Shown piece after piece: positions 5,754 through 59,676 of a DNA stretch of 64,000 nt (within the stretch, counting starts at the first letter, position 1; each line of letters starts with the position of its first letter). Below the pieces are notes generated by a model. It made no database searches, was not told where the DNA came from, and saw only the letters and a program-made list of their open reading frames with translations. Where the stretch lies: positions 6,496 to 70,495 of the forward strand of contig AQSC01000061.1 of assembly GCA_000402775.1 (NCBI GenBank). The letters run 5' to 3'. The position numbers were made by a program, and so were the translations under genes. The stretch is from Euryarchaeota archaeon SCGC AAA252-I15 (GTDB taxonomy: Archaea; Altiarchaeota; Altiarchaeia; IMC4; SCGC-AAA252-I15).

Positions 5754-5787
5754 ATTTAAAGTTTGAATTTCATATTAGTTAAGGAGT

Positions 5788-6159
5788 ATGGTTACGAAGA
5801 GGAAGCATCTGGCTTTTGAAAGGGAGATAGACAGGTACAATCGGACGCTTGACAGGTCAGGACTTGACGGGGAAACCGTCAAGGAGATTAAGGACCGGTT
5901 CGACAGGATGCACCTTGTTGTGATGCACGGGACTGATGAAGGAATAGTGGTTGAGGGAAAATACGTCCAGGATACGGAATCTGTAGAGGATACTGAGGCC
6001 ATAAACGAGCGTTTAAGCTTTCTGTGGGGAGATAGCGCAGTATTCAAATTAAAGGCGGCAGACGAGAAACCCAAGGAAATGTTCAGAGACACAGTAGCCT
6101 CCCTGAAAAACAAAAACGCATTAGTAGACGCCCTAGCCAGACAATTGAGATTAGAGTAA
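5788..6159 (+). CDS. Hypothetical protein (123 aa, charged)
   Basis: ORF with coding-like composition in a tight intergenic context. No recognisable motif. Confidence 0.4.
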   Translation: MVTKRKHLAFEREIDRYNRTLDRSGLDGETVKEIKDRFDRMHLVVMHGTDEGIVVEGKYVQDTESVEDTEAINERLSFLWGDSAVFKLKAADEKPKEMFRDTVASLKNKNALVDALARQLRLE

Positions 6160-6783: not shown

Positions 6784-6794
6784 GGATATAATAT

Positions 6795-9111: not shown

Positions 9112-9285
9112 ATGGAGGTTCTCAAATTCTATGTTTCTGAAGAGACCGCTGAGAAATTCAGGGAGAAGGCACTGAGGAAATACAAGTTCAAGAAGGGAGC
9201 CCTATCTAAAGCCGCTGAAATGGCGCTTTCCATGTGGATTAAAAAAAGGGAAGAGGAAGATCTGGGTGAATTATTAGATGAGTAA
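9112..9285 (+). CDS. Small ribbon-helix-helix (CopG/Arc-like) protein, 57 aa. It is not in the ORF track because it is under 60 aa
   Basis: ATG at 9112. Translation is MEVLKFYVSEETAEKFREKALRKYKFKKGALSKAAEMALSMWIKKREEEDLGELLDE*. The beta-strand then two helices pattern is typical of RHH proteins. It overlaps the start of the next gene. Confidence 0.4.
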   Translation: MEVLKFYVSEETAEKFREKALRKYKFKKGALSKAAEMALSMWIKKREEEDLGELLDE

Positions 9286-37910: not shown

Positions 37911-37914
37911 GACC

Positions 37915-40017
37915 CTACTTCATTGTAAAATGGTAGTAAGATAAGTTTGATGATCGGATTATATCCTTGAGCCTTGATTCGATAAACTCTGAACTCAGGC
38001 TTCGTCTGTTAAGGTAAATATTAGAAAGGGCTCCGCCGTTTACTATTTTGTGGAATGGTGATTCAACTTCAATCCGTTTTTTAGAGGATATGCGAGCGTT
38101 AGGCCTGACTTGGAATGAATTAGTGTATTTTTTTACTACAATTGAATTTTGAAATCTTTTAGAATCAACATCTGGAAATCGTATAGAAGCTGCTTCGGCA
38201 GAAGTCCTAGCTATTGTGAAAAACAATCCCGACTCCGCATTGAATTCGTCTGAAATACGCTTCATTTTCTGTATAAATCTTAAACCGAATTTTTGAGCTG
38301 ATTTTGATTCATGCAATTCTGATCCTACAGCAGTTGAAACCATTTCGTTCAGACCAACAAAGCCTATAACGTATGCTTGTTTTTCCGGGTTTAGATATGT
38401 TAGGTCGTTTCGAGCAACCTTCTGGGACATGAATGGTAGGAGATTATTTTTTAGGTTTTTTTCGAGAATCTTCTTCTTAAGTAGTAGAATGTTTTTAGCT
38501 TTTAACATTCGATTATAAAGGAGTTCTCGCATTACACTCTCCTTGCCATTTGCCTCATAAGCTATGTGGGGTAGATTAATCGAAATAAGCTGCGCTACTC
38601 CCCCGCGAAGAGTTCCGGGCCGGGCAAGATCCACTAGCATGGAATCATCCGAAGGCATGATGAACGAGCTTCCTTGAAGGCAGAGTATTTTCGGTGAGAA
38701 TTTTCGAGAGGTTATGAAGTAGGGTGTTCGGGTTTTCGCCGCTACTTGGCAGAGTTTTTCAACTATTTCTGATTGTTTTGAAACCTGTTTTTTAGTAATC
38801 CTCACGTTGAATTTAGGGAATATGAATGGTTTTTTATGGTAGTCTCCAGCCAAGTATATGTCGCATAACGTGCTGAGTAGTTGTTCTGATTCCTGAGTGA
38901 AGTCCCCGTAAGTTAAGCCTCCGCTAATACGACCTTTTGGTAAAACCGCTGGAACATCCCGGAGAAAATGCGGGATCTCGATATCACAGTCAATGCTTGA
39001 GTACACGACTTGACCTCCACGCATCCCATACATTTGACTTAACTCGAACACAAACATTTGGGCAAGCTGTTTAACCTTATCTTTAGAAAGCCCTCTAATG
39101 TATGGAGCCATGAACGTGTTGAAATAATTTAATCCTTGCCCACCACTGCAGTTTGTTTGAGCTGCAGCCAAGATTCGGCCAGCGTGTAAAAAAGCCACTT
39201 CAGCCTTTTTAGGAGGCCCAGAAATCGCTGTGTATTTTCCTGTTCCATCAGGCTTGAAACCGTTTTTCAAGAAAAATCTAAGGTCGTGTGAAAAAGAATG
39301 AGAACGCGTTGCGAAGTAATCCAAATCGTGTATGTTCAATTCGGCCTTCATGTGAGAGTCGGAAAGACTCAACGGCAAAACATTAATCAGGGTGTATTCC
39401 CTGCTAATCTGATCTCCCATAAGCTTGTGAACAGCCTCGGGATTAAACTGCCTTCCATTAGTATGCTTGAAACCACTGTCAATCAAATCATGCACGTCGT
39501 GAACAGGCATTCCAAGACGAGTATAGCGGGCACGAGTATTCTCCAAACCATGCTCTAAAAGCTTAACGTTAACGACCTCCCTGATAAGGGGTGCGGTAAC
39601 ATAATCGAGTTTAAGCTTTACAAGCTCCTTCTCAACTTCAGAGGCTACACCCTTGGCTAGATCACTGTCTAATTTAGTCTCGGAAATTAGGGAATCGACA
39701 ATACGCTTCTTATTAAAGGACTCGACGATAATCTTGGACGTCCTAACCCTAAGTCCAGTACGCCCCATATAACGCCTCGCAACAGAAGGCTTAACACTAT
39801 AAAGCTCACCATGGATTATGTCTCTGATTTTTTTAGTAGGGATTCCGTCAAATAAAATACGCCTAATCTTCCTCTCGATTTTCGCAGCCTGAGCAAGCGA
39901 AGCCCCTGAATTCATGCAAGACGTTATTAACTTATCTCGGCTGTAAGGCTCAGAGGTACCACTTGCTTTAATAACATTCATAAAAACACCCCAACTGGGG
40001 TTATTATTTGACTCCAA
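37915..40017 (-). CDS. nrdD: Anaerobic (class III) ribonucleotide-reductase-like protein with an N-terminal ATP-cone. The C-terminal glycyl-radical/Zn-ribbon motifs are not recognisable
   Basis: N-terminal ATP-cone (MNVIKASGTSEPYSRDKLITSCMNSG...KIRDIIHGEL). Central 10-stranded-barrel-like region (NIHDLDYFATRSHSFSHDL, AAQTNCSGGQGLNYFNTF). The C-terminus ...KIVNGGALSNIYLNRRS... has no CxxC pairs and no clear RVxGY. 700 aa. Confidence 0.55.
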   Translation of the reverse strand: MESNNNPSWGVFMNVIKASGTSEPYSRDKLITSCMNSGASLAQAAKIERKIRRILFDGIPTKKIRDIIHGELYSVKPSVARRYMGRTGLRVRTSKIIVESFNKKRIVDSLISETKLDSDLAKGVASEVEKELVKLKLDYVTAPLIREVVNVKLLEHGLENTRARYTRLGMPVHDVHDLIDSGFKHTNGRQFNPEAVHKLMGDQISREYTLINVLPLSLSDSHMKAELNIHDLDYFATRSHSFSHDLRFFLKNGFKPDGTGKYTAISGPPKKAEVAFLHAGRILAAAQTNCSGGQGLNYFNTFMAPYIRGLSKDKVKQLAQMFVFELSQMYGMRGGQVVYSSIDCDIEIPHFLRDVPAVLPKGRISGGLTYGDFTQESEQLLSTLCDIYLAGDYHKKPFIFPKFNVRITKKQVSKQSEIVEKLCQVAAKTRTPYFITSRKFSPKILCLQGSSFIMPSDDSMLVDLARPGTLRGGVAQLISINLPHIAYEANGKESVMRELLYNRMLKAKNILLLKKKILEKNLKNNLLPFMSQKVARNDLTYLNPEKQAYVIGFVGLNEMVSTAVGSELHESKSAQKFGLRFIQKMKRISDEFNAESGLFFTIARTSAEAASIRFPDVDSKRFQNSIVVKKYTNSFQVRPNARISSKKRIEVESPFHKIVNGGALSNIYLNRRSLSSEFIESRLKDIIRSSNLSYYHFTMK

Positions 40018-46753: not shown

Positions 46754-47650
46754 AAGAATTCCAAATTCTCTGGCGCCTTCAAGTTTTAAGAAATCCTTAA
46801 GTTTATAGATTCTCCGGGATTTCTCAAGAACTTTAACACCTTCATTCAAAATTGAAAGTAAATTTGTGTTGTTCCGGTCTTGTGATTTAGAGTTCTCGCG
46901 ATAAAGGTGAGCGGTGAATCCACCCTCAACCGAGCAGGCGAGACTACCCTTGGAAATTTCCTTGATTATGTTATCACGATTCTTACTTGAAGAAGAGAGT
47001 AATGCGGACAAATTCATTGGAGAGTAGAAATTACCACGGTAAACCTCATTCCACAAAAGCTCTCGTTCATTCGACAGTACTGTTTTAAACCCCTTTTTCT
47101 TGTTTATCGGGGTTTCAATTATTTTTACTTTGAATTCTTCCATTTCACCACTTCGAAGAAGGTTTGTGTCCCTCGAAACCGCAAATCCCCCATAAAAACA
47201 GGCACATAGTTTAGCAAAAGACAAGCCTGAAATATTTGATAGTTTAAGGATGAGATTTTTTTCCAATACTCTGTCGGATACTTGGAAAAATTGTTCTCGA
47301 AGATACTTGTCAACACGCAACTCATGTATAGAGCCGTTTTTCCGTGCAATATCTCCTAAAAGAGATGCGACTGCGACAATGCATGATGATTCCAGCTCGC
47401 CGGGAAGACCAAGAAGTTTAGAATCGACGATATTAATTCGTGCACCACAACGTAGATTAAAATAATTAAGTGTGTTTTTAGCAACCTTTCGTACGAAAGA
47501 TTTAAGGTGGAGCGGTGTGTTGACGATTATTTTTTTCCCAGCAGTTACTTCTGAATCGAATATTACTTTCTGATCTAAATTGAATGCAGCACCCAAATCA
47601 CCTATAGGGGCGATTAAATCAAACGGAGTTCCAGAATTTGCCTTAGTCAT
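46748..47650 (-). CDS. GHMP-kinase-family protein, possibly the archaeal GHMP-type shikimate kinase
   Basis: Gly/Ser-rich phosphate-binding-like segment LGLPGELESSCIVAVASLLG (the P.GSGLGSSAA-like motif). 300 aa. An aromatic-pathway gene (pheA) lies in the same window. Confidence 0.4.
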   Translation of the reverse strand: MTKANSGTPFDLIAPIGDLGAAFNLDQKVIFDSEVTAGKKIIVNTPLHLKSFVRKVAKNTLNYFNLRCGARINIVDSKLLGLPGELESSCIVAVASLLGDIARKNGSIHELRVDKYLREQFFQVSDRVLEKNLILKLSNISGLSFAKLCACFYGGFAVSRDTNLLRSGEMEEFKVKIIETPINKKKGFKTVLSNERELLWNEVYRGNFYSPMNLSALLSSSSKNRDNIIKEISKGSLACSVEGGFTAHLYRENSKSQDRNNTNLLSILNEGVKVLEKSRRIYKLKDFLKLEGAREFGILS

Positions 47651-48924
47651 TTCCGATTAAATCTTACGAGTGGCTTACTTAAATGTCTTCTAGCCCGGGG
47701 AGGAACTTCAAACCACCCCAATTCAATATCCCGGAAGACCTTAGTTTTCATGACTTTTCGGATTTTATTATTGCATTTACGACATTTAAAACCCTTGTTT
47801 TTTCCTGAAGAAGTCATCTTCCGACCGCAGCATAATGGGGGAGTATCAAGAAGAATAGACTTCAGCTTTTCAATGCAAATTTTCTCTAAGTTAAGCGTGT
47901 TTGAATGCCTTCCAATACCACCGTAAACAATAATCTCATCACCAGTACACAATTGCTTCATTACATCCCTAAACTCCCCTGTTTGACGGTAGGCTCCGCA
48001 ATCGATTTCACCAGTTTCATCCATTAATTTGAAGAAAACGTGACCACCTTGAATCGTTTTTGGATTACTTGAAACTTTACCTGAAATTTTCACACAATCG
48101 AAGGGTTTAATTTCTCTTATTTTCTTCCATTTAAGATGATCATCTGAAGCTTGGTTTGTCTCAAATACTTGAATAAATTCAATTTTTTCTAAGGGTATAA
48201 TATCATTCCAGGCTTTCTTAACAACCATAGAAGACTTCCCCCTGATTCCACAAAAAATGGGGTCAGGACCGTGCGGGGTAATAAGAATTTGATTTGATAC
48301 AATATCTACACTATCAAAACATTTTGGATAAAATTTTTCATTCATAGAAAAAACACTTTGAAAATTGATTTTCCTTTCCTGTCCATAATTCCTTTTTTCC
48401 CGATACGCAATCAACTCAAATGTCTTATCATCAAGAACTGCCCCACACGCAGCTAAAGCACCGATAATTCCCCGACCATTTTTAAATTTTATTACTTCAG
48501 CCCCGATTTCAACTGCAGTATCCTCAGCTTCAATAATAGAAACATGCTCACTTACTACCTTTCGATAGAATTTTTCAAGTATTATTTGTTTTTTCCTGCT
48601 TAATTTTGGGACAAAAGCAATTCCGGGGTTTGTTTTTTTATGTGATAGATGAGAGTAAGTCGTGATGTAATCTATGACTTCTTTTCTAATTTTATGGTTA
48701 AAGTCGGTTACTATTGCAACAGCCCCATTTCCACGTGTTTTGTAGGGTATGTTTGGGTTAAGTCTAATTAGACGAAGAGTTGATTTAATTTTAAATTTTT
48801 TCTTAAGTTTCGCTGCAAGGTATGTCGTACACATTCCGTTGGGAGAATCCGTATCATCAATTCCAATAATCATGTTTTCTCTTTTATTTTTTAGGTTAAT
48901 TAATTTATAGGTTAAATAAATCAT
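47647..48924 (-). CDS. tiaS: tRNA(Ile2) 2-agmatinylcytidine synthetase TiaS
   Basis: N-terminal MIIGIDDTDSPNGMCTTYLAAKL ... LIRLNPNIPYKTRGNGAV matches the TiaS DUF1743/kinase-like start. C-terminal Zn ribbon CCGRKMTSSGKNKGFKCRKCNNK. 425 aa. Confidence 0.6.
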   Translation of the reverse strand: MIYLTYKLINLKNKRENMIIGIDDTDSPNGMCTTYLAAKLKKKFKIKSTLRLIRLNPNIPYKTRGNGAVAIVTDFNHKIRKEVIDYITTYSHLSHKKTNPGIAFVPKLSRKKQIILEKFYRKVVSEHVSIIEAEDTAVEIGAEVIKFKNGRGIIGALAACGAVLDDKTFELIAYREKRNYGQERKINFQSVFSMNEKFYPKCFDSVDIVSNQILITPHGPDPIFCGIRGKSSMVVKKAWNDIIPLEKIEFIQVFETNQASDDHLKWKKIREIKPFDCVKISGKVSSNPKTIQGGHVFFKLMDETGEIDCGAYRQTGEFRDVMKQLCTGDEIIVYGGIGRHSNTLNLEKICIEKLKSILLDTPPLCCGRKMTSSGKNKGFKCRKCNNKIRKVMKTKVFRDIELGWFEVPPRARRHLSKPLVRFNRK

Positions 48925-49127
48925 AATTATAAGTCAAGGAATATGTTATGACTTATTTTTATGACTTATTTTATTGTTTGATTTTCCGTATGATGTTTAT
49001 TTTTGAGATTAAATTGTATTTTCAAAATCGGTGATATTAAAAATTAGAATCATAGCATTTTTATATAAGTAAGTCAAATACAGTAGCATAATATAAGTCA
49101 TATGGTTTATTTTTTTGACTTACTAAG
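48925..49127. promoter_or_regulatory. AT-rich spacer with six copies of the inverted 7-mer TAAGTCA/TGACTTA. A candidate origin or operator array upstream of the Orc1/Cdc6-like gene
   Basis: TAAGTCA at 48930, 49070 and 49094. TGACTTA at 48949, 48962 and 49116. The last pair forms TAAGTCA-N15-TGACTTA ending 5 nt before the ATG at 49128. Confidence 0.5.
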
Positions 49128-50264
49128 ATGGATAGGGAATCATATTATAAAAAATTCAATTGGAACAAGAGCCCGTTTATTAAATCTACTTCAATTGATA
49201 CGCCAATAATTCGAAGAACAGAAGAATACGAAAAAGTAGTTGAATGCATTGGTGGATGGGATAGAATAATGGTTGTTACGGCTCCCATAGGATACGGTAA
49301 AACAACATTTATGAATCTTCTAATAAAAGAAAAAATACATGAAATCGACTATATCATCTCCTTTGATTCATACGATCCAGTATACGCAGTAATAAAGAAG
49401 ATACTCAGTAGTCTGCCCTTATGGAAGAGGTTATTTTCTCGAGAAGTTAACAGAAGCGAATTTGGAAAATTATTACAAAAAAAACTAGGATCGGAAAAAA
49501 TGCTCATTTTATTTGATGAAGCACAAGATTACGACGAGGAATTGTTCAGGTGGCTTAGGATAATAAACGACAGAGCCAACAATGTTTTTATGATTTTTTT
49601 TGGTTTACCTACTCTTGAGAATAAGATAACTTCTGAATCCTCTTTTAGGGATAGGAAGTCGAAATCCATTAAATTAAATCCTCTTGACTTAGATGTTATG
49701 GGGAAAATAATTCGAGAGCGTATTAAGTGGGTTGGTGGAGAGGGTATTAAACCCTTCAATGAGGGGGGTTTAAAGAGGGTTTGCGAATCTGCTAATAGTA
49801 TTCCAAGAAAGCTTCTTGAAAATGGGCAACTTGTTATTAGGGAGGCTGCTATTAGGGAAAAAATTAGTATTGATGAAACGTTTGTTGAGGGTGTTTTGGG
49901 TTGTTTTGAAGAGCCGGTAAGAGATTATGTTGAGCCTTATGAAGTTCCAAAAACAATTGAGAAAGAGTCTTCTATTGTTGATTTTTTAAGTGATTTGTCT
50001 CCAATGCAAAGAAGTATTGTTGAATTATTACAGGTTAATGAGGAGTTGAGTATTTCCGAGTTGAGTGAAGAGCTTGCAAGTGATATTCGAAGTGTTGGTT
50101 CTTTGATTAGAAAGCTTAGGGGTTTGGATAAGGATGAGTTACTTAGAAAACCTAATGTTCCTTATCCTATCGTTGTTAGGAAGGGTAAGGATAAGAGGTC
50201 GGGTAGAGTTCAATATGTTTATGGTTTATCAGATAATGTTAGGAGGTTAATTGCAAAAAGATAA
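49128..50264 (+). CDS. Orc1/Cdc6-like AAA+ ATPase with a C-terminal winged helix
   Basis: Walker A is VTAPIGYGKTTF. Walker B is LILFDEAQDY. Sensor-2-like SIPRKLLENGQLVIREAA. C-terminal wH with the wing KGKDKRSGRVQYVYGLS. 378 aa. Confidence 0.5.
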   Translation: MDRESYYKKFNWNKSPFIKSTSIDTPIIRRTEEYEKVVECIGGWDRIMVVTAPIGYGKTTFMNLLIKEKIHEIDYIISFDSYDPVYAVIKKILSSLPLWKRLFSREVNRSEFGKLLQKKLGSEKMLILFDEAQDYDEELFRWLRIINDRANNVFMIFFGLPTLENKITSESSFRDRKSKSIKLNPLDLDVMGKIIRERIKWVGGEGIKPFNEGGLKRVCESANSIPRKLLENGQLVIREAAIREKISIDETFVEGVLGCFEEPVRDYVEPYEVPKTIEKESSIVDFLSDLSPMQRSIVELLQVNEELSISELSEELASDIRSVGSLIRKLRGLDKDELLRKPNVPYPIVVRKGKDKRSGRVQYVYGLSDNVRRLIAKR

Positions 50265-50283
50265 GTCATGCTCCTTAGTTAGG

Positions 50284-50347
50284 GGTGGTTGGGTCAATCC
50301 GTCTTTGGCGCGCACACCCAACCATTTATTTTTTTAATATTTTTTTA
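50284..50347 (+). terminator. Stem-loop (10-bp stem, 50285-50294 / 50326-50335) followed by a T-run
   Basis: GTGGTTGGGT ... ACCCAACCAT, followed by TTTATTTTTTTAATATTTTTTTAT, directly after the Orc1-like stop. Confidence 0.4.
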
Positions 50348-50562
50348 TGGAAACAAAACTTGTGAGTTGTCAGGGTAAGGCGAGCCGCCTAATGTATGAG
50401 TACGTTAAGAAAAAGGTTTCTGTAAGCTATATGGAGGTTATTTGTGAGGCGGGGGTGATGGGTATTGATGAGGATACGGCTTACAGGATTATTGATTTTC
50501 TTTTGGTTTCTGGGAAGGTTTATGAGCCTGAAAGAGGTATTTTAGAGTTTGTAGATTATTAG
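50347..50562 (+). CDS. Hypothetical small protein (71 aa), possibly wH-like
   Basis: ORF downstream of the Orc1-like gene. No motif. Confidence 0.3.
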   Translation: METKLVSCQGKASRLMYEYVKKKVSVSYMEVICEAGVMGIDEDTAYRIIDFLLVSGKVYEPERGILEFVDY

Positions 50563-50668: not shown

Positions 50669-50830
50669 ATGAGAAAGAAAATCATGGTTACCCTTAGCGA
50701 GGAACAGTATCAACGACTTCAAGAGTTGCCTGCATTAGGGTCGACTGACTCTGAGAAACTCCGAAATGCATTCTTAATCTACGACAACCTGAAAGATTTA
50801 ATGGAGGTTATTAAGAAACTGAAGGAATAG
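50669..50830 (+). CDS. Small ribbon-helix-helix (CopG-like) protein, 53 aa. It is not in the ORF track
   Basis: ATG at 50669. Translation is MRKKIMVTLSEEQYQRLQELPALGSTDSEKLRNAFLIYDNLKDLMEVIKKLKE*. A TATA-rich region lies upstream (TTTATATATATGTGGGATATATATTG). Confidence 0.4.
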   Translation: MRKKIMVTLSEEQYQRLQELPALGSTDSEKLRNAFLIYDNLKDLMEVIKKLKE

Positions 50831-50831
50831 T

Positions 50832-52124
50832 TTACTTGAAATCCTCTTTGATGATTGTTTTTTCTGAAATCTCACCAACGAAGTTTTTTAGCATCATGGT
50901 TTTTGCTTCATCTGGTTTGTTTGTTTGAGCTAAAACCCACATTAACTTGACATACGCCGTTTCTGAAAGCATGTCTTCACAATAGATGACGCCTCTAGAG
51001 CTTACTTCTCGAAGGTTTGAGTAGACGTGGGGGTGTACGCGCCCGTTTAAACATTGAGTTGTCATTGCCATGATTACTTTTTCATTTCTTGCAGCTTCTA
51101 TTTTTGGGATTAATGTTGTTTTGGGGATTGTTGTTGGAATATGACCTAATGCCGTTCCTTCAAATACTATTCCCCTGATTTTCTTGTCTAGGTAAAAGTC
51201 GATTATTTCGGGATCCATTCCTGGATAAATTCGTATTAAGGCGACTTTTTCTTCTAAATCCAGTTTTGTTTTGGGGTGTTTTTCACCCTTATTTTGGGGG
51301 GGACCCCCCACTTCCCGTATTTTTCCATTTGGGAAAACTTTCGCGACAGGTTCGGAATTAATGGACTTGAATGCGTCCCTCCGAGTGGTGTGCATTTTTC
51401 GGACTCGGGCCCCATTGTGTGCGAAACAAAAATCGTCGTTTAGTGAACCATGCATTACCAAGTACACTCCATTGTATTTGCTGGTCGAAAAAATTGTTGA
51501 GCATAGTAGATTAAGGAATGTGTCGCTTGATCCGCGGTCGCTTGACCTTTGAGCTCCAGTGAGGATAATGGGGGTATCAGAGTTAGGTAGTAGGAAGCTT
51601 AGTGCTGCGCAAGAATAATGCATTGTGTCTGTTCCGTGTGTTAATACGACACCGTCTGCTCCAGACTTGGTTTCCGTTATAATTGATTTTGCCATTTTAA
51701 TCCAAAGTTTCGGATTCATATCCTCCGACATGACGTTCATCAAAGGGGTGGTTTTAATGTTTGCGATATCACTTAACTCGGGAATTGATGAAAAAAGATC
51801 CTCGGCAGTAAATGAAGTGTGGACTCCACCTGTTCTGTAGTCAATCTTGGATGAGATTGTTCCTCCAGTAGAAATAATTGAAATTGAGGGTTTGTCTTTA
51901 CTGTGACTTACTTTTACACCCATATTGTTTTTTTTACCTGAAATTTTTTCCAAAACCTTAATTTCCTTAATTGAGTTTTTTCCCAGGCCCATATTATAAC
52001 CACTGTCAAGTTTGATTGAGATGAATTCATCATCTGAAAGTGAAGGCCTTGGCATCAGAATCCCCTCAAAAGACTCAGAGTCTGTTTTAACGACTATTTT
52101 ATCTCCTGGATTTGGTTTAGCCAT
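50832..52124 (-). CDS. gatD: Glutamyl-tRNA(Gln) amidotransferase subunit D
   Basis: N-terminal GatD-specific domain plus an asparaginase-family core (ISIISTGGTISSKIDYRTGGV, HGTDTM). 430 aa. Confidence 0.8.
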   Translation of the reverse strand: MAKPNPGDKIVVKTDSESFEGILMPRPSLSDDEFISIKLDSGYNMGLGKNSIKEIKVLEKISGKKNNMGVKVSHSKDKPSISIISTGGTISSKIDYRTGGVHTSFTAEDLFSSIPELSDIANIKTTPLMNVMSEDMNPKLWIKMAKSIITETKSGADGVVLTHGTDTMHYSCAALSFLLPNSDTPIILTGAQRSSDRGSSDTFLNLLCSTIFSTSKYNGVYLVMHGSLNDDFCFAHNGARVRKMHTTRRDAFKSINSEPVAKVFPNGKIREVGGPPQNKGEKHPKTKLDLEEKVALIRIYPGMDPEIIDFYLDKKIRGIVFEGTALGHIPTTIPKTTLIPKIEAARNEKVIMAMTTQCLNGRVHPHVYSNLREVSSRGVIYCEDMLSETAYVKLMWVLAQTNKPDEAKTMMLKNFVGEISEKTIIKEDFK

Positions 52125-52621
52125 TTATTAAACACTTTGTAAAGTTCATCGGAATAAGCCACTAAAAAAATCTTTTCAATTGAGGAATTAGGATTGGAAT
52201 TTGAAAAACCAAAGATTGAATGTATCATAGCCTTCGACGCATCATCATAAGATAAACCACCAACACCGGTTCCCATACCGGGAAAGGCAATAGTCTTGAA
52301 TGTGCGGGAGTTAGCACGGGACAATGCCGCTGAAACTGCTTTTTTAACATTCCCAACCCCAATTTTCTCGGATGGGTTTTCCATGGTTGAAGCATGTATT
52401 ACATTACTCACTTTAAGCAACCCCCCGGTCGTTAAAACGGCAGAACCCACATGAATCGGGGCTTTAGAGCAAGCCTCCTCTTCTATTACAACCCCCCCCT
52501 TTTTTTTAATAGTGTAAGCGACTCCACCCCCCATAAATCCGAAAGAATTCGATGGATTAACAATCACTTCAACAACAATTTCAGTTAAGTCTCCCTTAAC
52601 CACCTCCACGCTGAAACCCAT
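52094..52621 (-). CDS. Macro-domain (ADP-ribose-binding / Appr-1''-p processing) protein. The start is probably at the internal Met at 52621
   Basis: VIVNPSNSFGFMGGGVAYTI ... FPGMGTGVGGL are macro-domain motifs. The track ORF extends to 52771, but that extension overlaps a convergent Zn-ribbon gene. Confidence 0.65.
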   Translation of the reverse strand: MGFSVEVVKGDLTEIVVEVIVNPSNSFGFMGGGVAYTIKKKGGVVIEEEACSKAPIHVGSAVLTTGGLLKVSNVIHASTMENPSEKIGVGNVKKAVSAALSRANSRTFKTIAFPGMGTGVGGLSYDDASKAMIHSIFGFSNSNPNSSIEKIFLVAYSDELYKVFNKWLNQIQEIK

Positions 52622-52655
52622 GATATTTATATCCAAATCGACGCATATATATCCC

Positions 52656-52811
52656 ATGGAAAAATGCTCAAGCTGCGGAATAGAAGTGTTGAGAGGATAT
52701 GTTGAATTCAATTGTCCAATGTGTAATAAACATAAAATAGTGAGATGCGAATCCTGCAGGACACTTGGCACTAAATACAGTTGTAACGACTGTGGATTTG
52801 AAGGACCCTAA
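52656..52811 (+). CDS. Small double zinc-ribbon protein (4 CxxC pairs, 51 aa)
   Basis: MEKCSSCGIEVLRGYVEFNCPMCNKHKIVRCESCRTLGTKYSCNDCGFEGP. Confidence 0.45.
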   Translation: MEKCSSCGIEVLRGYVEFNCPMCNKHKIVRCESCRTLGTKYSCNDCGFEGP

Positions 52812-52816
52812 CAAAA

Positions 52817-53089
52817 CTATTTTTTAGTCGAAACAGGTTGTTTTTCAACAAGGATAATATCACCAACCTCAAGAACTTCTTCGTAAGGAATACTCTCTTG
52901 TTGTAAAATACGTTTAACATCATCCCCTGATAAAACATCCCCTCTTAAGGGGTGGAGGCTTAACCGCATTATCTCTCCTTTCTCGAGATTTAGGATTACA
53001 TCGGAAAGCTTGCCCACAAATTGGGCTTTTTGGGTGTACATATCCATACCATAATACTCTGATAATGCCTTACTCATTGATATCACCAT
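52817..53089 (-). CDS. PRC-barrel domain protein (90 aa)
   Basis: Size and pattern (…FVGKLSDVILNLEKGEI…GDIILV…) fit archaeal PRC-barrel proteins. Confidence 0.4.
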   Translation of the reverse strand: MVISMSKALSEYYGMDMYTQKAQFVGKLSDVILNLEKGEIMRLSLHPLRGDVLSGDDVKRILQQESIPYEEVLEVGDIILVEKQPVSTKK

Positions 53090-53189
53090 TAACTATAGTG
53101 TTAATTTATGTAAGAGTATTATAAAAATGAGGGATAATTGTTTGGAGGGGTCACTTCCCGTATTTAAGACTTAAATTGGAATATAATTT

Positions 53190-54146
53190 ATGATGAGTAT
53201 TGAAGAAGTGGTATTAACGACCGGATTCCTTATTTTATCAGTTATATTAATCATTAAATCCGTTGTCATAGTTCGCCCACACGAGCGGGGAGTAGTTGAG
53301 CGTGTTGGAAAATATAATCGAACAATGACTTCAGGTTTGAATTTCGTAATCCCTGGTTTTGAATCCACGAAAAAGGTTGATATGCGAGAAACTTTAATAG
53401 ATGTTCCAGCACAAGAAGTTATCACTAAAGATAATGTTAATGTTGGAGTTGACGCCGTAATATACTTTCAAGTGATAGACCCATTCAAGGTTATTTACAA
53501 TGTCGCCTTGTTCGAGCTTGCTGCAGTTAAACTCGCTCAAACAAATTTAAGAAATATTATGGGTGATATGAGTCTTGATGAAGCTTTAGTTTCTCGTGAA
53601 AAGATTAATTTGGAGTTGCGTAGAATTCTCGATGATGCAACGGATAGGTGGGGTGTTCGAGTAACACGTGTTGAAATTCAAAAGATTGATCCCCCAACAG
53701 ATATTGTCGAGGCTATGAGCCGTCAGATGAAGGCTGAGAGGACTAAGCGGGCTGCAATACTTGAAGCTGAGGGATTGAAGCGGGCTGCAGTATTGCGGGC
53801 TGAAGGTGAAAAACAAGCTGCAATACTCAAATCTGAAGGTCAGGCGCAGGCAACATTAAAACTAGCACAAGCTGAAAGGGAAAAGAGGACTGTGGTGGCT
53901 GATGGGGAGGCGAACGCGATAAGACAGGTTTATGGTGCGATACATAAAGGAAGACCTACCAAGGACTTGCTCACAATTAAATATCTTGAGTCACTGGAAA
54001 AAATAGCGGATGGAAAGTCCACGAAAATATTCATGCCACTAGAAACAACAGGTATTCTATCCAGTGTAGCTTCACTCGGTGAAATGTTTAGAGATGGGGG
54101 TAAACTACTCCCCCCATCAAATAAACCCAATAAGAAGGGTAAATAA
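53190..54146 (+). CDS. Stomatin/prohibitin (SPFH, band-7) family protein
   Basis: N-terminal TM, SPFH core (VRPHERGVVERVGKY...IDVPAQEVITKDNVNVGVDAVIYFQV), and a coiled-coil EA-repeat tail (AAILEAEGLKRAAVLRAEGEKQAAILKSEGQAQA). Confidence 0.85.
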   Translation: MMSIEEVVLTTGFLILSVILIIKSVVIVRPHERGVVERVGKYNRTMTSGLNFVIPGFESTKKVDMRETLIDVPAQEVITKDNVNVGVDAVIYFQVIDPFKVIYNVALFELAAVKLAQTNLRNIMGDMSLDEALVSREKINLELRRILDDATDRWGVRVTRVEIQKIDPPTDIVEAMSRQMKAERTKRAAILEAEGLKRAAVLRAEGEKQAAILKSEGQAQATLKLAQAEREKRTVVADGEANAIRQVYGAIHKGRPTKDLLTIKYLESLEKIADGKSTKIFMPLETTGILSSVASLGEMFRDGGKLLPPSNKPNKKGK

Positions 54147-54224: not shown

Positions 54225-54512
54225 ATGGATATAAAGGATTTAAAGCCGAATGCAAGTGTAGACTCTATTTCAGGGGAGATTACCAGTGTTGAGGAGCCAC
54301 GGGAATTTACCAACTTCAGAGGTAGTGGTAGGGTTGCAAACGCCGTACTCAAGGATGATAGTGGTGAAGTAAAAATAACCTTGTGGAACGAGCAGGTTGA
54401 CCAAGTAACAATAGGATCTAAAGTTGTTATTGAAAATGGTTGGTGTAAGGAGTACCGCGGGGAGCTTCAGGTAAGTACTGGGAAATTCGGCACATTAAAG
54501 GCGATTGAATAA
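54225..54512 (+). CDS. OB-fold nucleic-acid-binding protein (95 aa)
   Basis: Beta-rich small protein with an anticodon-binding/RPA-like OB pattern (VDSISGEITSVEEPREF...GEVKITLWNEQVDQVTIGSKVVIENGW). Confidence 0.4.
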   Translation: MDIKDLKPNASVDSISGEITSVEEPREFTNFRGSGRVANAVLKDDSGEVKITLWNEQVDQVTIGSKVVIENGWCKEYRGELQVSTGKFGTLKAIE

Positions 54513-56610: not shown

Positions 56611-58074
56611 TCAGAGGTAGCTCTTATCCCCTTCAACACCCTGCAAGTTCGAAGTCTCATCACGCCGTAACGCATCCCAGTAAGACCCGTAACGCTCCTT
56701 TAATTGATGTTCTATTGAACGGGATTCCTTAATGCTTTTTTCAACATGTTTTTTCAAGATAAGATCACTTCCCTCGTGCACGGCGTAGTCACCAGCCATT
56801 CGAACCACTCCCCCCAAATCCCTAAGCCTCAACGTAAGCGAATCCCGGGTCTTGTCAAGCGCCTCAGCCATTTTCACAGACTCATCGATTATCACTTCAA
56901 CAGCATCCCCTGTGGCATGTGGTATTCGAGAGTCATTGTTAATCTCTTGAGTTATGAATTGCACGACCTTGAAACGGTTTTCATCATTATCCGGCATTGT
57001 CGTCTCCAACAAGATTTCATAACCATTTCCAACAACCCTTGAACGAAGCGGTGGCAATATATCCTTCAATTCTCGAATGTTACATGCCCCAACAAATAGG
57101 AAGTCACACGGTACATCAACGACTTTAACGGACGCGCCGGCTGACTGAGGATTCCTTCCCACAATTGGGAATTTCCTCTCCTGCATTGCAGTGAGAATAT
57201 AAGCCTGAAGGTTCCCTAGCTGAGGCAACTCATCGACAAACAAGACACCTTCATGGGCTTCGTGTATTGCCCCTGCAACAACCCGAAGATAAGCTGGAGT
57301 TCCTATTTCAGGGTGACTTCCATAAGGATCGTGGCGGACGTCTCCCAGAAGCTCAGTCTCCGAGGCACCAGTAGCGTGAACGAATGTTTTACGGTCCAAA
57401 GGCAATAAAACCATCTCCTTTAGCTTCATCCGCTCCTCTTTAATCGTGTTTATCGCTTGTTGGTCTAAAACCCGAATTTTATCGTCTTGAATTCTCTGGT
57501 AAATTAGAGTCTCCTCCGAACCTTCCTTGTTAATTCTCGTCGCATGAATCTCCCTTTCAGGCTCCTGCGGAAAAGCCTCAATAACCTCCGTAATAAGATC
57601 GCTGTACAAACTCGCACGTTTCCTCTGAGCGATCTTGCGGTACTTGTCTTCCCCGCAATTAGGGCATATTCGATCCTTGGATCTACTGGTGTTACCGCAA
57701 GTAATGCATCTGAATCCTAAGACTTCGGATACATATGTTGGGACTTCATTTGCGGTTTGGATTTTTCCAAACTCATTTACCGGGTCTTTTTCAGCTTCCG
57801 ACTCTCCTCTAGATCTAATTTTTATTAATGGTTTGTTAGTATTTTGTGGATTATCCGTGATTAAAATCTCAACAGTGGGTGGGCTTAGAAGGTCGGACAT
57901 GGCTTTAGCAAGCATTGATTTTCCAATTCCGGGAGGCCCGACCAACAAAATGTTTCTTCTTTGTTTAACGGCGAATTTAACTTTTTCGACTGCGGTATCT
58001 TGTCCGATAATCTGTTTTATTAACGTTTTTGGTGTTACAACCTCTTTGGTTGTTTCGAAATCACCCATATTCAT
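56611..58074 (-). CDS. LonB-like AAA+ ATPase lacking the C-terminal protease domain, with a Zn-ribbon insertion in place of the LonB TM insert
   Basis: IIGQDTAVEKVKFAVKQRRNILLVGPPGIGKSMLAKAMSDLL matches the archaeal LonB start. Insert CITCGNTSRSKDRICPNCGED. Walker B VLFVDELPQL. Lon-type helical lid (LRLRDLGGVVRMAGDYAV). The protein ends at 487 aa with no Ser-Lys protease domain. Confidence 0.55.
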   Translation of the reverse strand: MNMGDFETTKEVVTPKTLIKQIIGQDTAVEKVKFAVKQRRNILLVGPPGIGKSMLAKAMSDLLSPPTVEILITDNPQNTNKPLIKIRSRGESEAEKDPVNEFGKIQTANEVPTYVSEVLGFRCITCGNTSRSKDRICPNCGEDKYRKIAQRKRASLYSDLITEVIEAFPQEPEREIHATRINKEGSEETLIYQRIQDDKIRVLDQQAINTIKEERMKLKEMVLLPLDRKTFVHATGASETELLGDVRHDPYGSHPEIGTPAYLRVVAGAIHEAHEGVLFVDELPQLGNLQAYILTAMQERKFPIVGRNPQSAGASVKVVDVPCDFLFVGACNIRELKDILPPLRSRVVGNGYEILLETTMPDNDENRFKVVQFITQEINNDSRIPHATGDAVEVIIDESVKMAEALDKTRDSLTLRLRDLGGVVRMAGDYAVHEGSDLILKKHVEKSIKESRSIEHQLKERYGSYWDALRRDETSNLQGVEGDKSYL

Positions 58075-58154
58075 CGATTATTCTTTAGCATAATAGGATA
58101 AAAACAACCTACTACCTAACTCAGTTTGATTTCGAACCCACTTAAAAAAGATAA

Positions 58155-58505
58155 TCACACTATTTTTTCAATTTTTCCGTGGAACTCAACATCCTTTATA
58201 AGGCCTGAGGGGGCTATGTCATCGATAAACTCTATTTCTTTCAAGTATACGTAAACCCTATCCTCACCCGCTCCGACAGTAATCTTTAAGGATACGGAAG
58301 GTCCCTCCCTAGTGTTGAACTCGGGAATAAGTTGCTTATCCTCTAAGACCCCTGATGCAGTACCATAACATTCACTACCATCGTCTTCGTCGAGTCCAAC
58401 GTTTTGAAAGGTGAATTGAACTTCATCCACAATCCCTATCTCTCGGTCACCGTATAACACTATTCCACTCCCAAAGTGAACGGAGTCGCGATCTAAATCA
58501 ACCAT
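58155..58505 (-). CDS. Hypothetical acidic protein (116 aa)
   Basis: ORF in an operon-like position downstream of the DnaG gene. No motif. Confidence 0.35.
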   Translation of the reverse strand: MVDLDRDSVHFGSGIVLYGDREIGIVDEVQFTFQNVGLDEDDGSECYGTASGVLEDKQLIPEFNTREGPSVSLKITVGAGEDRVYVYLKEIEFIDDIAPSGLIKDVEFHGKIEKIV

Positions 58506-58506
58506 A

Positions 58507-59676
58507 TTATTTACTACTTTTATCAGTTATAATATTTACGTTCTTGGTATCTGTAACAGCAGACTTGTTAACACCTACAATATACTCAACACTTGATTTG
58601 CTTGCCGCATCAACAAGTCTCTGAGTAATAATACCGTCGAAAACCACATACTTTGGCTGAACGTCTGCGAGAGTGTTGACTAGATCCTTTATCTCAATCT
58701 CAGTAATAACTTTAACGTCCTTATCATATAATCTTGCGGTAAGCTTACCCTTAACATCCTTCAACTCATCTAAAAGCTTAGATGAAACTTCCGGAGAAGC
58801 GCTCTTTTTCGGAGCAATATAAGATTTCACAGGATAATTTTTCTCTTCAACGTGATTCGAAACCTTATCCTGCTTTGGAGGCATCTTCCTCCGGAGAGCC
58901 ATGATTACTTCCTTTTTAGTCAACTCTTCAACCTCTTTTCCTTGAGGTGCCTTAGCCACAAAATCAATATCAGCAACTGAGAGGAGTTCTTTCAATATCA
59001 TGTCGCCTCCACGATCACCATCAACGAAAGATATCGTAGTTTTGGTCTTACTAATCTCTGAAATAACTGGTGGAATGCTTGTACCACCAACAGCTAAAAC
59101 ATTCTTAATACCCTGCTTTAAAAGATTCAAAACATCAGCACGACCTTCAACGAGTATAACACTCTCAGCGGAATCAATACCCGGCCCTGCTGGAAGACCT
59201 TTATACGTGGTTATCTCACTTAACTGAACAGACTTCCTAACCTCATCAGTAAGCTCTCCACTTTCAGGGATCTCGTCATCCATAAGCTTCTTTAAAAGCG
59301 TTTTAGCACGGTCAACCATGACAATCCTCCTTTGAGTTCGAGCATCCTCAATATTCGTGACCCTGATTTTCCCGTTGCAAGGTCCAACACGGTCGACTCC
59401 TTCTATTGCAGCTGCAATAATTGAAGTTTCAACCATATCAAGGCTTGAAGGAACAGTCAAAATGCCGATAGACTTTCCTGCCTTGGTCTTAATCTCAACT
59501 TCAATTCTCCCAATCCGTCCAGTCTTCTGAAGGTCTCTAAGCTCTAATTCTTCACCTAAAAGTCCCTCAGATTGGCCGAAAACCGCGCCAACAACGTCTG
59601 GTTTCTCAACCACTCCATCAATAGTAATATCTGCGTAAATGTTGTATTTTATCGTATCAGCTGGTGCTTTAGCCAT
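58507..59676 (-). CDS. dnaG: Archaeal DnaG-type primase (Toprim)
   Basis: N-terminal KYNIYADITIDGVVEKPDVVGAVFGQSEGLLGEELELRDLQKTGRIGRI (archaeal DnaG signature). Toprim ILVEGRADVLNLLKQGIKNVLAVGG ... FVDGDRGGD. Confidence 0.85.
   Translation of the reverse strand: MAKAPADTIKYNIYADITIDGVVEKPDVVGAVFGQSEGLLGEELELRDLQKTGRIGRIEVEIKTKAGKSIGILTVPSSLDMVETSIIAAAIEGVDRVGPCNGKIRVTNIEDARTQRRIVMVDRAKTLLKKLMDDEIPESGELTDEVRKSVQLSEITTYKGLPAGPGIDSAESVILVEGRADVLNLLKQGIKNVLAVGGTSIPPVISEISKTKTTISFVDGDRGGDMILKELLSVADIDFVAKAPQGKEVEELTKKEVIMALRRKMPPKQDKVSNHVEEKNYPVKSYIAPKKSASPEVSSKLLDELKDVKGKLTARLYDKDVKVITEIEIKDLVNTLADVQPKYVVFDGIITQRLVDAASKSSVEYIVGVNKSAVTDTKNVNIITDKSSK

Follow-up and report, generated by a model that had tools for sequence, protein, structure and literature searches.

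To our knowledge, all mapped archaeal origins rely on Orc1/Cdc6, Sulfolobus WhiP excepted. The locus described here lies in the window, as we call the whole 64-kb stretch of archaeal DNA analysed, and resembles Orc1/Cdc6 with its ORB-flanked origins (S. solfataricus Orc1-1/Orc1-3 on oriC2, 2qby; P. aerophilum Cdc6, 1fnn) in that the protein has the same AAA+/lid/winged-helix plan of about 380 aa and its gene lies next to inverted repeat clusters which bracket A+T-rich DNA, at positions that imply autoregulation. Unlike Orc1/Cdc6, the protein fails the TIGR02928, Cdc6_C and Cdc6_lid models and has an ExeA-type W-x3-PF motif and an HTH_24/Lrp-type winged helix, while the 7-mer repeats have no relation to ORB or mini-ORB. 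Its best relatives in sequence are the ExeA/GspA-type AAA_22 ATPases (COG3267; TIGR03015 PEP-CTERM-associated ATPase), which differ in being bacterial, in being without a DNA-binding winged helix and in belonging to secretion or exopolysaccharide (EPS) loci; the context of the window ATPase is tiaS/gatD, whereas the bacterial match examined is in an EPS locus. We know of no repeat arrays with ATPases of the ExeA/GspA type, nor of any replication role for ExeA/TIGR03015 ATPases.

Iteron plasmids (pSC101 RepA, R6K pi, RK2 TrfA) and DnaA/oriC likewise have many short repeats beside the initiator gene, with repeats over the initiator promoter (autorepression), opposed arrays with a spacing of about one turn and an adjacent A+T-rich element, and in iteron systems the specificities of protein and repeat are swapped jointly between related elements, as they are here. 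The iteron-plasmid Rep is, however, a WH-WH protein without AAA+ domain, and the window locus is chromosomal, archaeal and only a putative replicator. Sulfolobus oriC3/WhiP shows by precedent that a chromosome can have an additional origin served by its own adjacent non-Orc1 initiator. The WhiP origin has a mobile-element ancestry and coexists with Orc1-dependent origins (Raymann et al. 2014, PMC3914693). WhiP is, in contrast to the window ATPase, a Cdt1-like winged-helix protein without ATPase domain, and the two have no sequence relation. Sulfolobus Orc1-2 is a transcription factor in the DNA-damage response, and resembles our case as an AAA+-winged-helix initiator-like protein acting as a sequence-specific regulator; it is a true Orc1/Cdc6 with a dispersed regulon, whereas for the window ATPase only sites clustered around its own gene were seen.

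The repeat array and its surroundings

The 203-bp spacer at 48925-49127 (78.8% A+T) contains six exact copies of TAAGTCA/TGACTTA against 0.039 expected (Poisson P ~5e-12), and shuffling of the spacer with its dinucleotides preserved (200,000 rounds), used as the null for the count, never gave more than three. The first-pass annotation was thus right in placing these six copies beyond chance, and also in describing an inverted pair TAAGTCA-N15-TGACTTA at 49094-49122. The distal cluster (48930-48968), positioned upstream of the divergent tiaS promoter, has TAAGTCA at 48930-48936 on the plus strand and TGACTTA at 48949-48955 and 48962-48968 (minus strand) with a 13-bp spacing. The proximal cluster (49070-49122) has TAAGTCA at 49070-49076 and 49094-49100 (plus strand) and TGACTTA at 49116-49122 (minus strand); it sits between TATA box and start codon and ends 5 nt short of the ATG, an operator-like placement. 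The TATA-like element TTTATATAAG (49060-49069, plus strand), read from the sequence and directly abutted by a repeat, is the putative promoter element of the ATPase gene, and the start site is likewise putative. Several relatives (among them L004, L005, L025, L013 and L023) keep a (G)GTTTTTATA block at an equal distance from their ATG, and in most chromosomal loci the sites lie directly against the TATA-like box and occupy the 60 bp between it and the ATG.

Between the two clusters lies an A+T-rich stretch (48969-49059). When DNA stability was scanned over the whole window by nearest-neighbour values in 100-bp stretches, those starting at 48875 and 48996 ranked first and fourth among the least stable of the 64 kb, and in every related locus the equivalent spacer ranks 1-3 for low stability in such a scan. 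The suggestion made earlier, that the repeats surround AT-rich DNA of the unwinding type, agrees with this, since the TAAGTCA repeats lie on both sides of the DNA that melts most easily in the window. The layout of an iteron replicon is present, with cognate repeats beside the gene, some of them over the promoter, and an easily melted A+T-rich stretch adjacent.

Among 203-bp stretches throughout the 64-kb window, no other 7-mer is as dense as TAAGTCA. The first-pass annotation had also raised a search for the 7-mer beyond the locus, which within the window gave a background level of seven copies in about 62 kb; no second TAAGTCA cluster was found in these remaining 62 kb. Near the gene the situation is different: a further copy lies within the ATPase gene (49685, minus strand), and a single TAAGTCA (50262-50268, plus strand) overlaps its stop codon and may be the counterpart of site clusters that relatives have just beyond the operon 3' end, namely five TAGTCA at 5605-5683 in L018, sites at +1416 and +1429 in L004 and a palindrome at +1539 in L007. 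Additional sites show an enrichment of about 8-fold in the +/-2 kb around the ATPase gene, some of them within adjacent coding regions, and such a sequence pattern would fit better with a binding zone than with a single promoter operator.

Two alternatives have to be weighed at this point. The first is a pure transcriptional switch, in which the ATPase would be an autorepressor, perhaps also of tiaS and gatD, with looping between the clusters and no replication role; we regard it as a serious possibility, although it falls clearly short of an even chance. It agrees with the location of the proximal sites between TATA-like box and ATG and of the distal sites upstream of the tiaS promoter, and with the palindromic site pairs found in L004, L005 and L007; the last two sites of L004, and likewise those of L005, together make the perfect palindrome TAAGTCATATGACTTA. 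On the other hand, five to eight sites (10-12 in mobile-element-like paralogs) in runs of the same orientation are more than a simple operator needs, further sites lie within neighbouring genes and past the operon 3' end, and a second cluster is missing from the other 62 kb of the window. The second alternative is a centromere-like or chromosome-organising module, comparable to ParB/parS or to AspA on pNOB8, in which the protein would nucleate on the clustered sites around its own gene and organise or segregate the DNA. The spread of sites over a zone of about 3 kb around the gene, coding regions included, and the existence of mobile-element-like paralogs with site specificities of their own are in line with it, but a ParA/SegA-type partner is absent from every locus looked at and the sites are arranged around the promoter. 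We also know of no AAA+ initiator-clade ATPase among centromere binders, and consider this alternative improbable.

Conservation of the layout and exchange of the repeat word

In at least 10 further lineages of Altiarchaeota, TAAGTCA is found in the same layout before the orthologous gene; the proteins of these lineages are only 48-60% identical and their spacers otherwise diverged. The shared order is a distal inverted cluster, the TATA box and a proximal cluster that ends just before the ATG; one or two forward followed by two or three reverse distal sites recur in most of the nine other chromosomal loci mapped, and the chromosomal arrays hold 5-8 sites each. The gene order TctA...TiaS / spacer / ATPase / small ORF / GatD-Macro...Band_7 is kept across the phylum, and the conservation of the ATPase equals that of its housekeeping neighbours (48-60% identity). 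The window locus is core syntenic chromosome. An integrated plasmid-like element, which the first-pass annotation had offered as its second interpretation, fails at this locus because the order of the housekeeping genes is conserved phylum-wide; the locus also showed no integrase, no att-like repeats and no compositional island. That a plasmid or provirus integrated here recently and left its replication/partition module is hardly credible, even with related proteins in mobile-element-like contexts. In L018, where tiaS is no longer the neighbour, the array stays with the ATPase gene, which speaks against a switch.

Divergent copies of the locus have exchanged the repeat word. It is TAGTCA in L018, a divergent chromosomal lineage, while the other word-swapped distant copies are in mobile-element-like contexts, with TACGTCA in L013, GAATGGTT in L015, L021 and L022, and TACAACA in L023 and L024 (10-12 copies in the arrays of the latter two). 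All of them keep the layout of two clusters around the TATA box, and the recognition-helix stretch of the protein shifts with the word (KDIRSxGS, KDYASTEV, KSIRSVNS, SSIEGVRN, KQQNYVGM). Because repeat word and recognition helix change together, we infer that the ATPase reads the DNA repeats. Binding of the repeats by the adjacent ATPase, together with autoregulation, is in our estimate well supported and very probable.

The mobile-element-like paralogs are preceded by non-coding regions of 520-680 bp that contain an A+T-only palindrome of 46-50 bp, a conserved non-coding block and iterons, an arrangement typical of Rep-origin modules, and one paralog stands at the head of a one-directional block of small genes without known function on a 22-kb contig. 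A terminal-overlap test for circularity gave no overlapping ends for the mobile-element-like contigs, and these had no match to known viruses or plasmids. The family was not found in archaeal elements of IMG/VR (scanned with two profiles), INPHARED (three proteins) or PLSDB (one protein); the PLSDB matches were only four bacterial exeA/'AAA family ATPase' genes, of which the one examined (H2) is in an EPS locus. Rfam and tRNA scans of the window and of the mobile-element-like loci found nothing.

Family and fold of the ATPase

The ATPase gene (49128-50264, plus strand) encodes an ExeA-like AAA+ protein of 378 aa with a C-terminal winged helix-turn-helix at residues ~285-378. Walker A (GYGKTT), Walker B (LFDEAQ), an Arg-finger-like FRDR and a sensor-2-like PR were identified, so that the Walker motifs, sensor 2 and winged helix reported from the first inspection are present. 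The catalytic motifs are invariant across 28 sequences (GxGKTT, D130, R176 and R227, with E131 nearly invariant), and that none of the ATPase and Arg-finger motifs has been lost is a further point against a mere switch. The protein matches Pfam AAA_22 at 3e-10 (41 bits, cutoff 27) and TIGR03015 at 7e-12, in the latter case with 45 bits and so far below the equivalog cutoff of 324.5. No TIGR02928, Cdc6_C (PF09079) or Cdc6_lid (PF22703) match was obtained in Pfam and NCBIfam at E <= 0.1, whereas canonical Orc1/Cdc6 proteins in a 5.8-billion-protein set carry PF22703, PF13401 and PF09079. Searches of the PDB with phmmer and with the family profile gave no Orc1/Cdc6 chain, only HTH and P-loop segments and nothing diagnostic, and the winged helix resembles by sequence HTH_24/Lrp-type domains and not Cdc6_C.

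By tblastn, bacterial exeA/'AAA family ATPase' genes align from residue 1. The identity to ExeA/GspA-type ATPases is about 25% over residues 1-271, which comprise the N-terminal motif and the whole AAA+ core. In the N-terminal W-x3-PF the residues W12, P16 and F17 are nearly invariant, and [FLW]-G-[LW]-x3-PF is what we take to be the ExeA N-terminal motif. By sequence the protein is thus an AAA_22 ATPase of the ExeA kind with a winged helix fused to it. The structural comparison has a different emphasis: an AF2 model (pLDDT 87.5) has three helices between beta2 and beta3, the top Foldseek matches over the full length including the winged helix are 1fnn (Cdc6) and 2qby_A (Orc1-DNA), and hhalign to the Orc1/Cdc6 profile gives 95% probability (E = 1.8e-8) for residues 29-207, an AAA+ core that takes in the segment of the initiator-specific helices. 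These initiator-type AAA+ features are not diagnostic of Orc1/Cdc6 because they also occur in other AAA_22-type ATPases. What the first-pass annotation called Orc1/Cdc6 therefore holds for the architecture, with Cdc6 and Orc1 as best structures, but does not hold for family membership, which is that of the ExeA/TIGR03015-type AAA_22 ATPases.

Full-length homologs number 77, and those that are named are essentially all from Altiarchaeota. The wider family has at least 700 clusters and is chromosomal in Aenigmarchaeota and other DPANN lineages, a distribution that agrees with a switch and suggests an old cellular role; its members are so far labelled 'ExeA' (JGI) or 'AAA family ATPase'. PADLOC gave no defence-system match for the ATPase, its best PHROG was a weak match to a MuB-like 'DNA transposition protein', and a BFVD structure search returned generic clamp-loader AAA+ proteins only.

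Origin signals and a possible replicator

At fourfold-degenerate sites the GC skew turns from plus to minus near 52-54 kb independently of the strand, which near the locus is the sign of a terminus under the bacterial rule. The switch is not reproduced in seven relatives (pooled t = -0.1), and the gene orientation converges around the locus and does not diverge. The GC-skew maximum was rejected as an origin mark, as it has the wrong sign and is not reproducible. The ORB-like core TCCANNGGAAA is absent from the window. Bird et al. (2016, PMC4975002, Data Sheet S1) report canonical Cdc6/Orc for each of the seven Altiarchaeales genomes that they surveyed, and an initiator is therefore not missing in these organisms. 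The top matches listed for the Orc1/Cdc6 profile in the 5.8-billion-protein set were only of the Crenarchaeota type and are uninformative for Altiarchaeota Orc1, and in the other literature consulted nothing lineage-specific was found on Altiarchaeota Orc1 or origins.

These data bear on the reading of the first-pass annotation, a principal chromosomal oriC beside a genuine Orc1/Cdc6 gene with the 7-mers as ORB elements. It has in its favour the best structural matches and the inverted repeats that flank A+T-rich DNA beside the gene; against it are the three Orc1/Cdc6 models that canonical members match and this protein does not, the ExeA-type N-terminus, the missing ORB-like core, the skew with the sign of a terminus and canonical Cdc6/Orc elsewhere in the phylum (Bird et al. 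2016, PMC4975002). The reading is abandoned on two of the three counts that the first-pass annotation had itself named as refuting it, the non-Orc1, ExeA-like class of the protein and Cdc6/Orc elsewhere; it is very improbable, and on family membership largely refuted. Cdc6/Orc elsewhere and the absence of an origin-type skew are also what a switch would lead one to expect, and Orc1-2 of Sulfolobus is an Orc1/Cdc6 paralog that has become a transcription factor.

Downstream of the ATPase gene, a 71-aa ORF (50347-50562, plus strand) encodes a stand-alone homolog of the winged helix at the C terminus of MCM. A profile of three orthologs matches 2ma3_A (M. thermautotrophicus MCM WH) at 4e-6 and 2m45_A (S. 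solfataricus MCM WH) at 4e-4, and also RPA32C, and Pfam MCM_C is matched at 2.4e-7 by two of the three members. The small wH-like gene of the first-pass annotation thus does have a winged helix, specifically of the MCM type. Orthologs also lie 3' of the ATPase gene in L011 (directly) and in L018 (after a 51-aa ORF), so that the pairing occurs in three lineages, including the most divergent one, and a switch leaves this neighbour unexplained.

The explanation that we tentatively favour, though with less than even confidence, is a self-regulated initiator-like protein with an iteron module, possibly a secondary origin akin to the replicons of mobile elements. The TAAGTCA repeats would be the cognate iterons/operators of the neighbouring ATPase, a DPANN/Altiarchaeota-specific member of the ExeA clade of AAA+ ATPases with C-terminal winged helix, and the recognition helix would, to judge from the co-variation, read AAAAR-TAAGTCA-WR. 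On runs of sites in the same orientation, 9-13 bp apart and in two opposed clusters about 140 bp apart, ATP-bound protomers may be aligned head-to-tail so that they flank the most meltable DNA of the region, as the intact Walker, sensor and Arg-finger motifs suggest. Binding would shut off the ATPase's own promoter, because the proximal sites are between TATA box and ATG. The assembly would be an initiator-like complex and the locus a replicator module, akin to those of the paralogs in mobile-element-like contexts, that became fixed at an early stage in the chromosome of Altiarchaeota. Such a module might serve as a secondary origin in addition to the canonical Orc1/Cdc6 origin(s), and the stand-alone MCM winged-helix protein might link to the MCM helicase as an adaptor or else mimic it.

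In favour of such a replicator are the non-random array with the same word and layout in 10 further chromosomal lineages, the joint swaps of word and recognition-helix stretch in a constant two-cluster-around-TATA layout, the Cdc6/Orc1 fold matches with the hhalign result for the core and the invariant catalytic motifs, and the spacer DNA as least stable in the window and of rank 1-3 in relatives. The roughly 8-fold site enrichment, the Rep-origin-like regions of the paralogs and the MCM-WH neighbour in three lineages point in the same direction. Against it are the failure of all Orc1/Cdc6 sequence models, with ExeA/TIGR03015 ATPases as nearest relatives, the canonical Cdc6/Orc elsewhere together with the terminus-sign, non-reproduced skew and the convergent gene orientation, sites from TATA to ATG exactly as in a plain autorepressor, the chromosomal occurrence of the wider family in DPANN, the absence of family members from the archaeal elements of IMG/VR, INPHARED and PLSDB, and the lack of a mobile-like contig with overlapping ends. 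A stronger version seems to us less likely than not, but far from negligible: that the non-Orc1, ExeA-clade AAA+-winged-helix family, widespread in DPANN and their mobile elements, is a genuine initiator, which would bind the 7-bp iterons, melt the A+T-rich spacer, engage MCM via or against the stand-alone MCM-WH protein and specify an Orc1-independent chromosomal origin in Altiarchaeota.

In any case the locus offers a conserved protein-DNA pair, with a 7-bp site, a recognition helix, natural swaps and a possible link to MCM. If it is a replicator, it would bring in a new family of initiators and allow replication to be followed in uncultivated Altiarchaeota and their mobile elements; if it is a switch only, DNA target and autoregulation would be the first functional clue for an unannotated family with hundreds of DPANN members.

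An RHH-like 53-aa ORF, also counted to the module in the first-pass annotation, was rejected as a part of it, as the ORF travels with gatD and in L018 is found with gatD apart from the ATPase gene. A conserved hairpin (50282-50336, plus strand) separates the ATPase gene from the small MCM-WH gene; it has the stem GGTTGGGT / ACCCAACC and a conserved 21-nt loop CAATCCGTCTTTGGCGCGCAC, and is followed by a T-run. By alignment and folding it has an MFE of -23.5 kcal/mol (z = -3.4); in L011 both stem arms are altered and the loop is kept, and L018 has a related element.

The repeat array and its layout

All six exact copies of TAAGTCA or its reverse complement TGACTTA reported in the first-pass annotation were located, at 48930(+), 48949(-), 48962(-), 49070(+), 49094(+) and 49116(-), within the 203-bp spacer (A+T 78.8%) between the tiaS ORF (47647-48924, minus strand) and the ORF of the 378-aa ATPase (49128-50264). 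The clustering is, as had been supposed, far beyond chance, since 200,000 dinucleotide-preserving shuffles of the spacer gave a mean of 0.039 sites and a maximum of 3 (Poisson P ~5e-12). No other 7-mer reaches an equal density anywhere in the 64-kb window, and a search for TAAGTCA elsewhere in it returned background level only; extra copies lie within the ATPase gene (49685) and on its stop codon (50262). TiaS probably starts at the internal Met18 (MIIGIDDTDSP...; segment 48873-48924), because the match to its TCKD domain begins at residue 19, and with this start the real spacer is probably ~254 bp, the size seen in relatives.

The word has been kept while the spacer diverged in ten further chromosomal lineages (loci L004, L005, L007, L008, L009, L011, L012, L025, L026 and L018), with one-base variants in L011 and L007 and TAGTCA in L018; the consensus from 56 sites is AAAAR-TAAGTCA-WR. 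The layout is largely conserved. A distal cluster of 1-2 forward and then 2-3 reverse sites, mostly 13 bp apart, is followed by an A+T-rich stretch of ~45-100 bp that closes with a TATA-like block, (G)GTTTTTATA (TTTATATAAG at 49060 in the window), which a forward site directly abuts, and a proximal forward/reverse pair, a perfect palindrome in L004 and L005, ends 5-10 nt before the ATG. Extra sites show an ~8-fold enrichment over the +/-2 kb around the ATPase gene, some inside the 3' part of tiaS and others in a cluster just beyond the operon end.

The ATPase and its relation to the repeats

The proposed Orc1/Cdc6 identity of the ATPase holds for the fold and fails for the family. The AF2 model (pLDDT 87.5) consists of an AAA+ base, in which additional helices separate beta2 from beta3, a lid, a disordered linker of 23 residues and a winged helix bearing a long beta-wing. 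In a Foldseek search of the PDB the leading matches are P. aerophilum Cdc6 (1fnn), origin-bound S. solfataricus Orc1-1 (2qby_A) and Drosophila Cdc6/Orc1, with RuvB, RFC and MuB behind them. Aligned by hhalign to a profile built from five solved archaeal Orc1/Cdc6 chains, the protein reaches a probability of 95%, over the AAA+ core only. As modelled, the protein would work like an Orc1-type DNA-bound AAA+ protein.

In the profile search, none of the Orc1/Cdc6 models of Pfam or NCBIfam matched; Pfam returned AAA_22 (3e-10), AAA_14 and a weak C-terminal HTH_24/HVO_A0114, and the best NCBIfam model was ExeA-like TIGR03015 (45 bits against a cutoff of 324.5). The AAA_22 match alone is not discriminating, because canonical Orc1/Cdc6 proteins in the same database carry Cdc6_lid, AAA_22 and Cdc6_C; the absent lid and Cdc6_C matches do discriminate. 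Bacterial exeA or 'AAA family ATPase' genes align to residues 1-271 at ~25% identity. A nearly invariant W12-x3-P16-F17 stands at the N-terminus, which we take to correspond to the ExeA-family motif. Walker A, the Walker B aspartate, the FRDR arginine and the PR sensor-2 arginine are invariant in 28 sequences, and the Walker B glutamate nearly so. The protein is an ExeA-clade ATPase with an acquired winged helix, outside the Orc1/Cdc6 family, and the module is best filed as an initiator-like AAA+-winged-helix protein with its cognate repeat array, built on an ExeA-clade ATPase instead of Orc1/Cdc6.

The wider family comprises 9,284 representatives (E <= 1e-3), among them a 350-390-aa subgroup of the same architecture (at least 700 close clusters), which in Aenigmarchaeota, Nanoarchaeia and 'DPANN group' MAGs lies on the chromosome and is named only 'AAA family ATPase' or 'ExeA'. 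No description of the family, its sites or the MCM-like neighbour discussed below was found in full text, PDB, Pfam, NCBIfam, PHROGs, PADLOC or Rfam.

Distant members (31-46% identity) sit among small unknown genes, with NucS_C, ScoMcrA_N, AbiEi, SNase and resolvase genes as neighbours, behind non-coding regions of 520-680 bp in which the two clusters around a TATA-like block are kept and the words differ. The recognition helix differs with them. Its variable stretch reads KD[IV]RS[VIL]GS at the chromosomal TAAGTCA-type loci, KSIRSVNS with TACGTCA (L013), SSIEGVRN with GAATGGTT (L015, L021, L022), KQQNYVGM with 10-12 copies of TACAACA (L023, L024) and KDYASTEV with TAGTCA (L018), while the remainder, LIRKLRGL, is constant. 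The best support for repeat reading by the winged helix comes from this co-variation, which is indirect but hard to account for in another way. Upstream of a distant DPANN member (27% identity; L019, 1-291) neighbouring radA and an RPA-like gene, the 291 bp seen hold several different short palindromes and TTCACG/CGTGAA repeats, which suggests that the repeat-array habit reaches beyond Altiarchaeota.

Chromosomal setting and downstream elements

Full-length homologs of the ATPase number 77 (42-70% identity), and those named are essentially all 'Candidatus Altiarchaeota/Altiarchaeales'. The order TctA ... TiaS(-), 200-300-bp spacer, ATPase(+), small ORF, GatD(-) Macro(-) ... Band_7 is found again on contigs as long as 537 kb in lineages throughout the phylum, and the deep lineage L018 has the same gene set rearranged. 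Identity across relatives is 48-60% for the ATPase, on par with its housekeeping neighbours TiaS (46-56%) and GatD (47-60%). Because the gene order recurs phylum-wide and the ATPase is as conserved as these neighbours, the locus is core chromosome rather than a recently integrated element. The alternative first offered, the replication/partition module of an integrated plasmid, would suit the distant members among resolvase genes; it is largely excluded by the conserved gene order, and we regard it as the least probable reading.

Nor does the RHH gene belong to an ATPase module. This 53-aa RHH-like ORF (50669-50830, +), without family assignment, is the neighbourhood's most conserved protein (62-74% identity across the phylum) and always lies tail-to-tail with gatD, also in L018, whose ATPase gene has been relocated.

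A 71-aa ORF 3' of the ATPase gene (50347-50562, +) encodes a free-standing homolog of the C-terminal winged helix of MCM (2ma3_A, 4e-6; 2m45_A, 4e-4; Pfam MCM_C, 2.4e-7 in two of three members). Within +/-10 kb of the ATPase gene it was seen in three lineages only, the others being L011 (11233-11430, directly 3' of the ATPase gene) and L018, the most divergent (5342-5596, behind a 51-aa ORF). It also resembles the RPA32 C-terminal WH and ends in a conserved motif, G-[LVI]-[IV]-Y-E-P-x2-G-[IL]-[LI]-E-[FL]-V-[DE]-[YW]. Between the ATPase stop codon and this ORF lies a conserved hairpin (50282-50336; L011 ~11166-11215; L018 ~5080-5150) with a G+C-rich stem, both arms of which are changed in L011, and a conserved 21-nt loop, CAATCCG(T)CTTTGGCGCGCAC; a T-run comes next, and the fold has an MFE of -23.5 kcal/mol (z = -3.4). 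The hairpin has no Rfam match and may serve as a terminator, an RNA element or a protein site.

The window carries many genes of DNA metabolism (3133-9059, 26831-30463, 36696-40017, 54225-54512, 56611-59676), encoding a HerA-like ATPase, a Hef-type helicase-ERCC4 nuclease, Nre, anaerobic ribonucleotide reductase NrdD, a 1,209-aa protein with three AAA domains, a 95-aa SSB-like OB protein, a Mg-chelatase/ComM-like ATPase and a Toprim (DnaG-like) protein; none has conserved linkage to the ATPase gene. A 676-aa ORF (9278-11308, +) has no Pfam match at E <= 1e-5.

Replicator, switch or organiser

On comparative evidence, the repeats are very probably the ATPase's own binding sites, and their position between TATA box and ATG would make autorepression unavoidable. 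A purely regulatory switch is a candidate reading, which we rank close behind an initiator-like replicator. The replicator, placed first with less than even confidence, would be a secondary origin related to the replicons of mobile elements and conceptually comparable to Sulfolobus oriC3/WhiP; the ATPase would assemble head-to-tail in an ATP-dependent manner on two opposed arrays across the meltable spacer. Several features speak for replication. The repeats form same-orientation runs that oppose each other, as DnaA-box or ORB arrays do. The 64-kb window has its least stable 100 bp in the spacer (z = 3.8), and the equivalent spacer ranks 1-3 for instability in every relative. The MCM winged-helix homolog encoded downstream of the ATPase gene and the spacers of the mobile-element-like paralogs, described below, point the same way. 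A centromere-like organiser seems improbable.

A canonical Orc1/oriC, as first annotated, would agree with the fold and is largely excluded by the failed Orc1/Cdc6 models and by canonical initiators elsewhere in Altiarchaeales; it is very improbable. Other observations weigh against a role in replication more generally. Bird et al. 2016 (PMC4975002) list Cdc6/Orc, a name never given to the ATPase family, for each of seven Altiarchaeales genomes, five of which also have a cluster called 'ORC1-type DNA replication protein'. Strand-corrected skew at fourfold-degenerate sites genuinely switches polarity near 52-54 kb of the window (t = -5.2); the change is from + to -, which by the bacterial rule is the sign of a terminus, and across seven related loci the effect was not consistent (pooled t = -0.1). 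Gene orientation converges on the locus instead of diverging, and genes converge also on ~52000-54000, where cumulative GC skew peaks.

Common to the mobile-element-like contigs that bear paralogs are a palindrome of 46-50 bp, A+T only, and after it a conserved G+C-rich non-coding block of ~200 nt, ATTCCGGGGTTTTC ... GAAAACCCC ... AAAAACGCATG ... TTCTGCAAGCTG ... GGGGTTTTTT, with a T-run at its end (L013 9505-9800; L015 2882-3300; L022 1-270; L023 950-1400). Such spacers look like a Rep-origin, and the block, which has no Rfam match, is possibly a small RNA or else an origin element. Counting against replication, circularity of these contigs could not be demonstrated, and no family members were found on catalogued archaeal viruses or plasmids. 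Contig L017 (1-67; ENA ERZ1742330 NODE_1681) starts with the Illumina Nextera adapter …GATACGGCGACCACCGAGATCTACAC-TATCCTCT-TCGTCGGCAGCGTCAGATGTGTATAAGAGACAG, so the odd N-terminus 'MCIRDS' of database protein P0069 is translated adapter and not biology.
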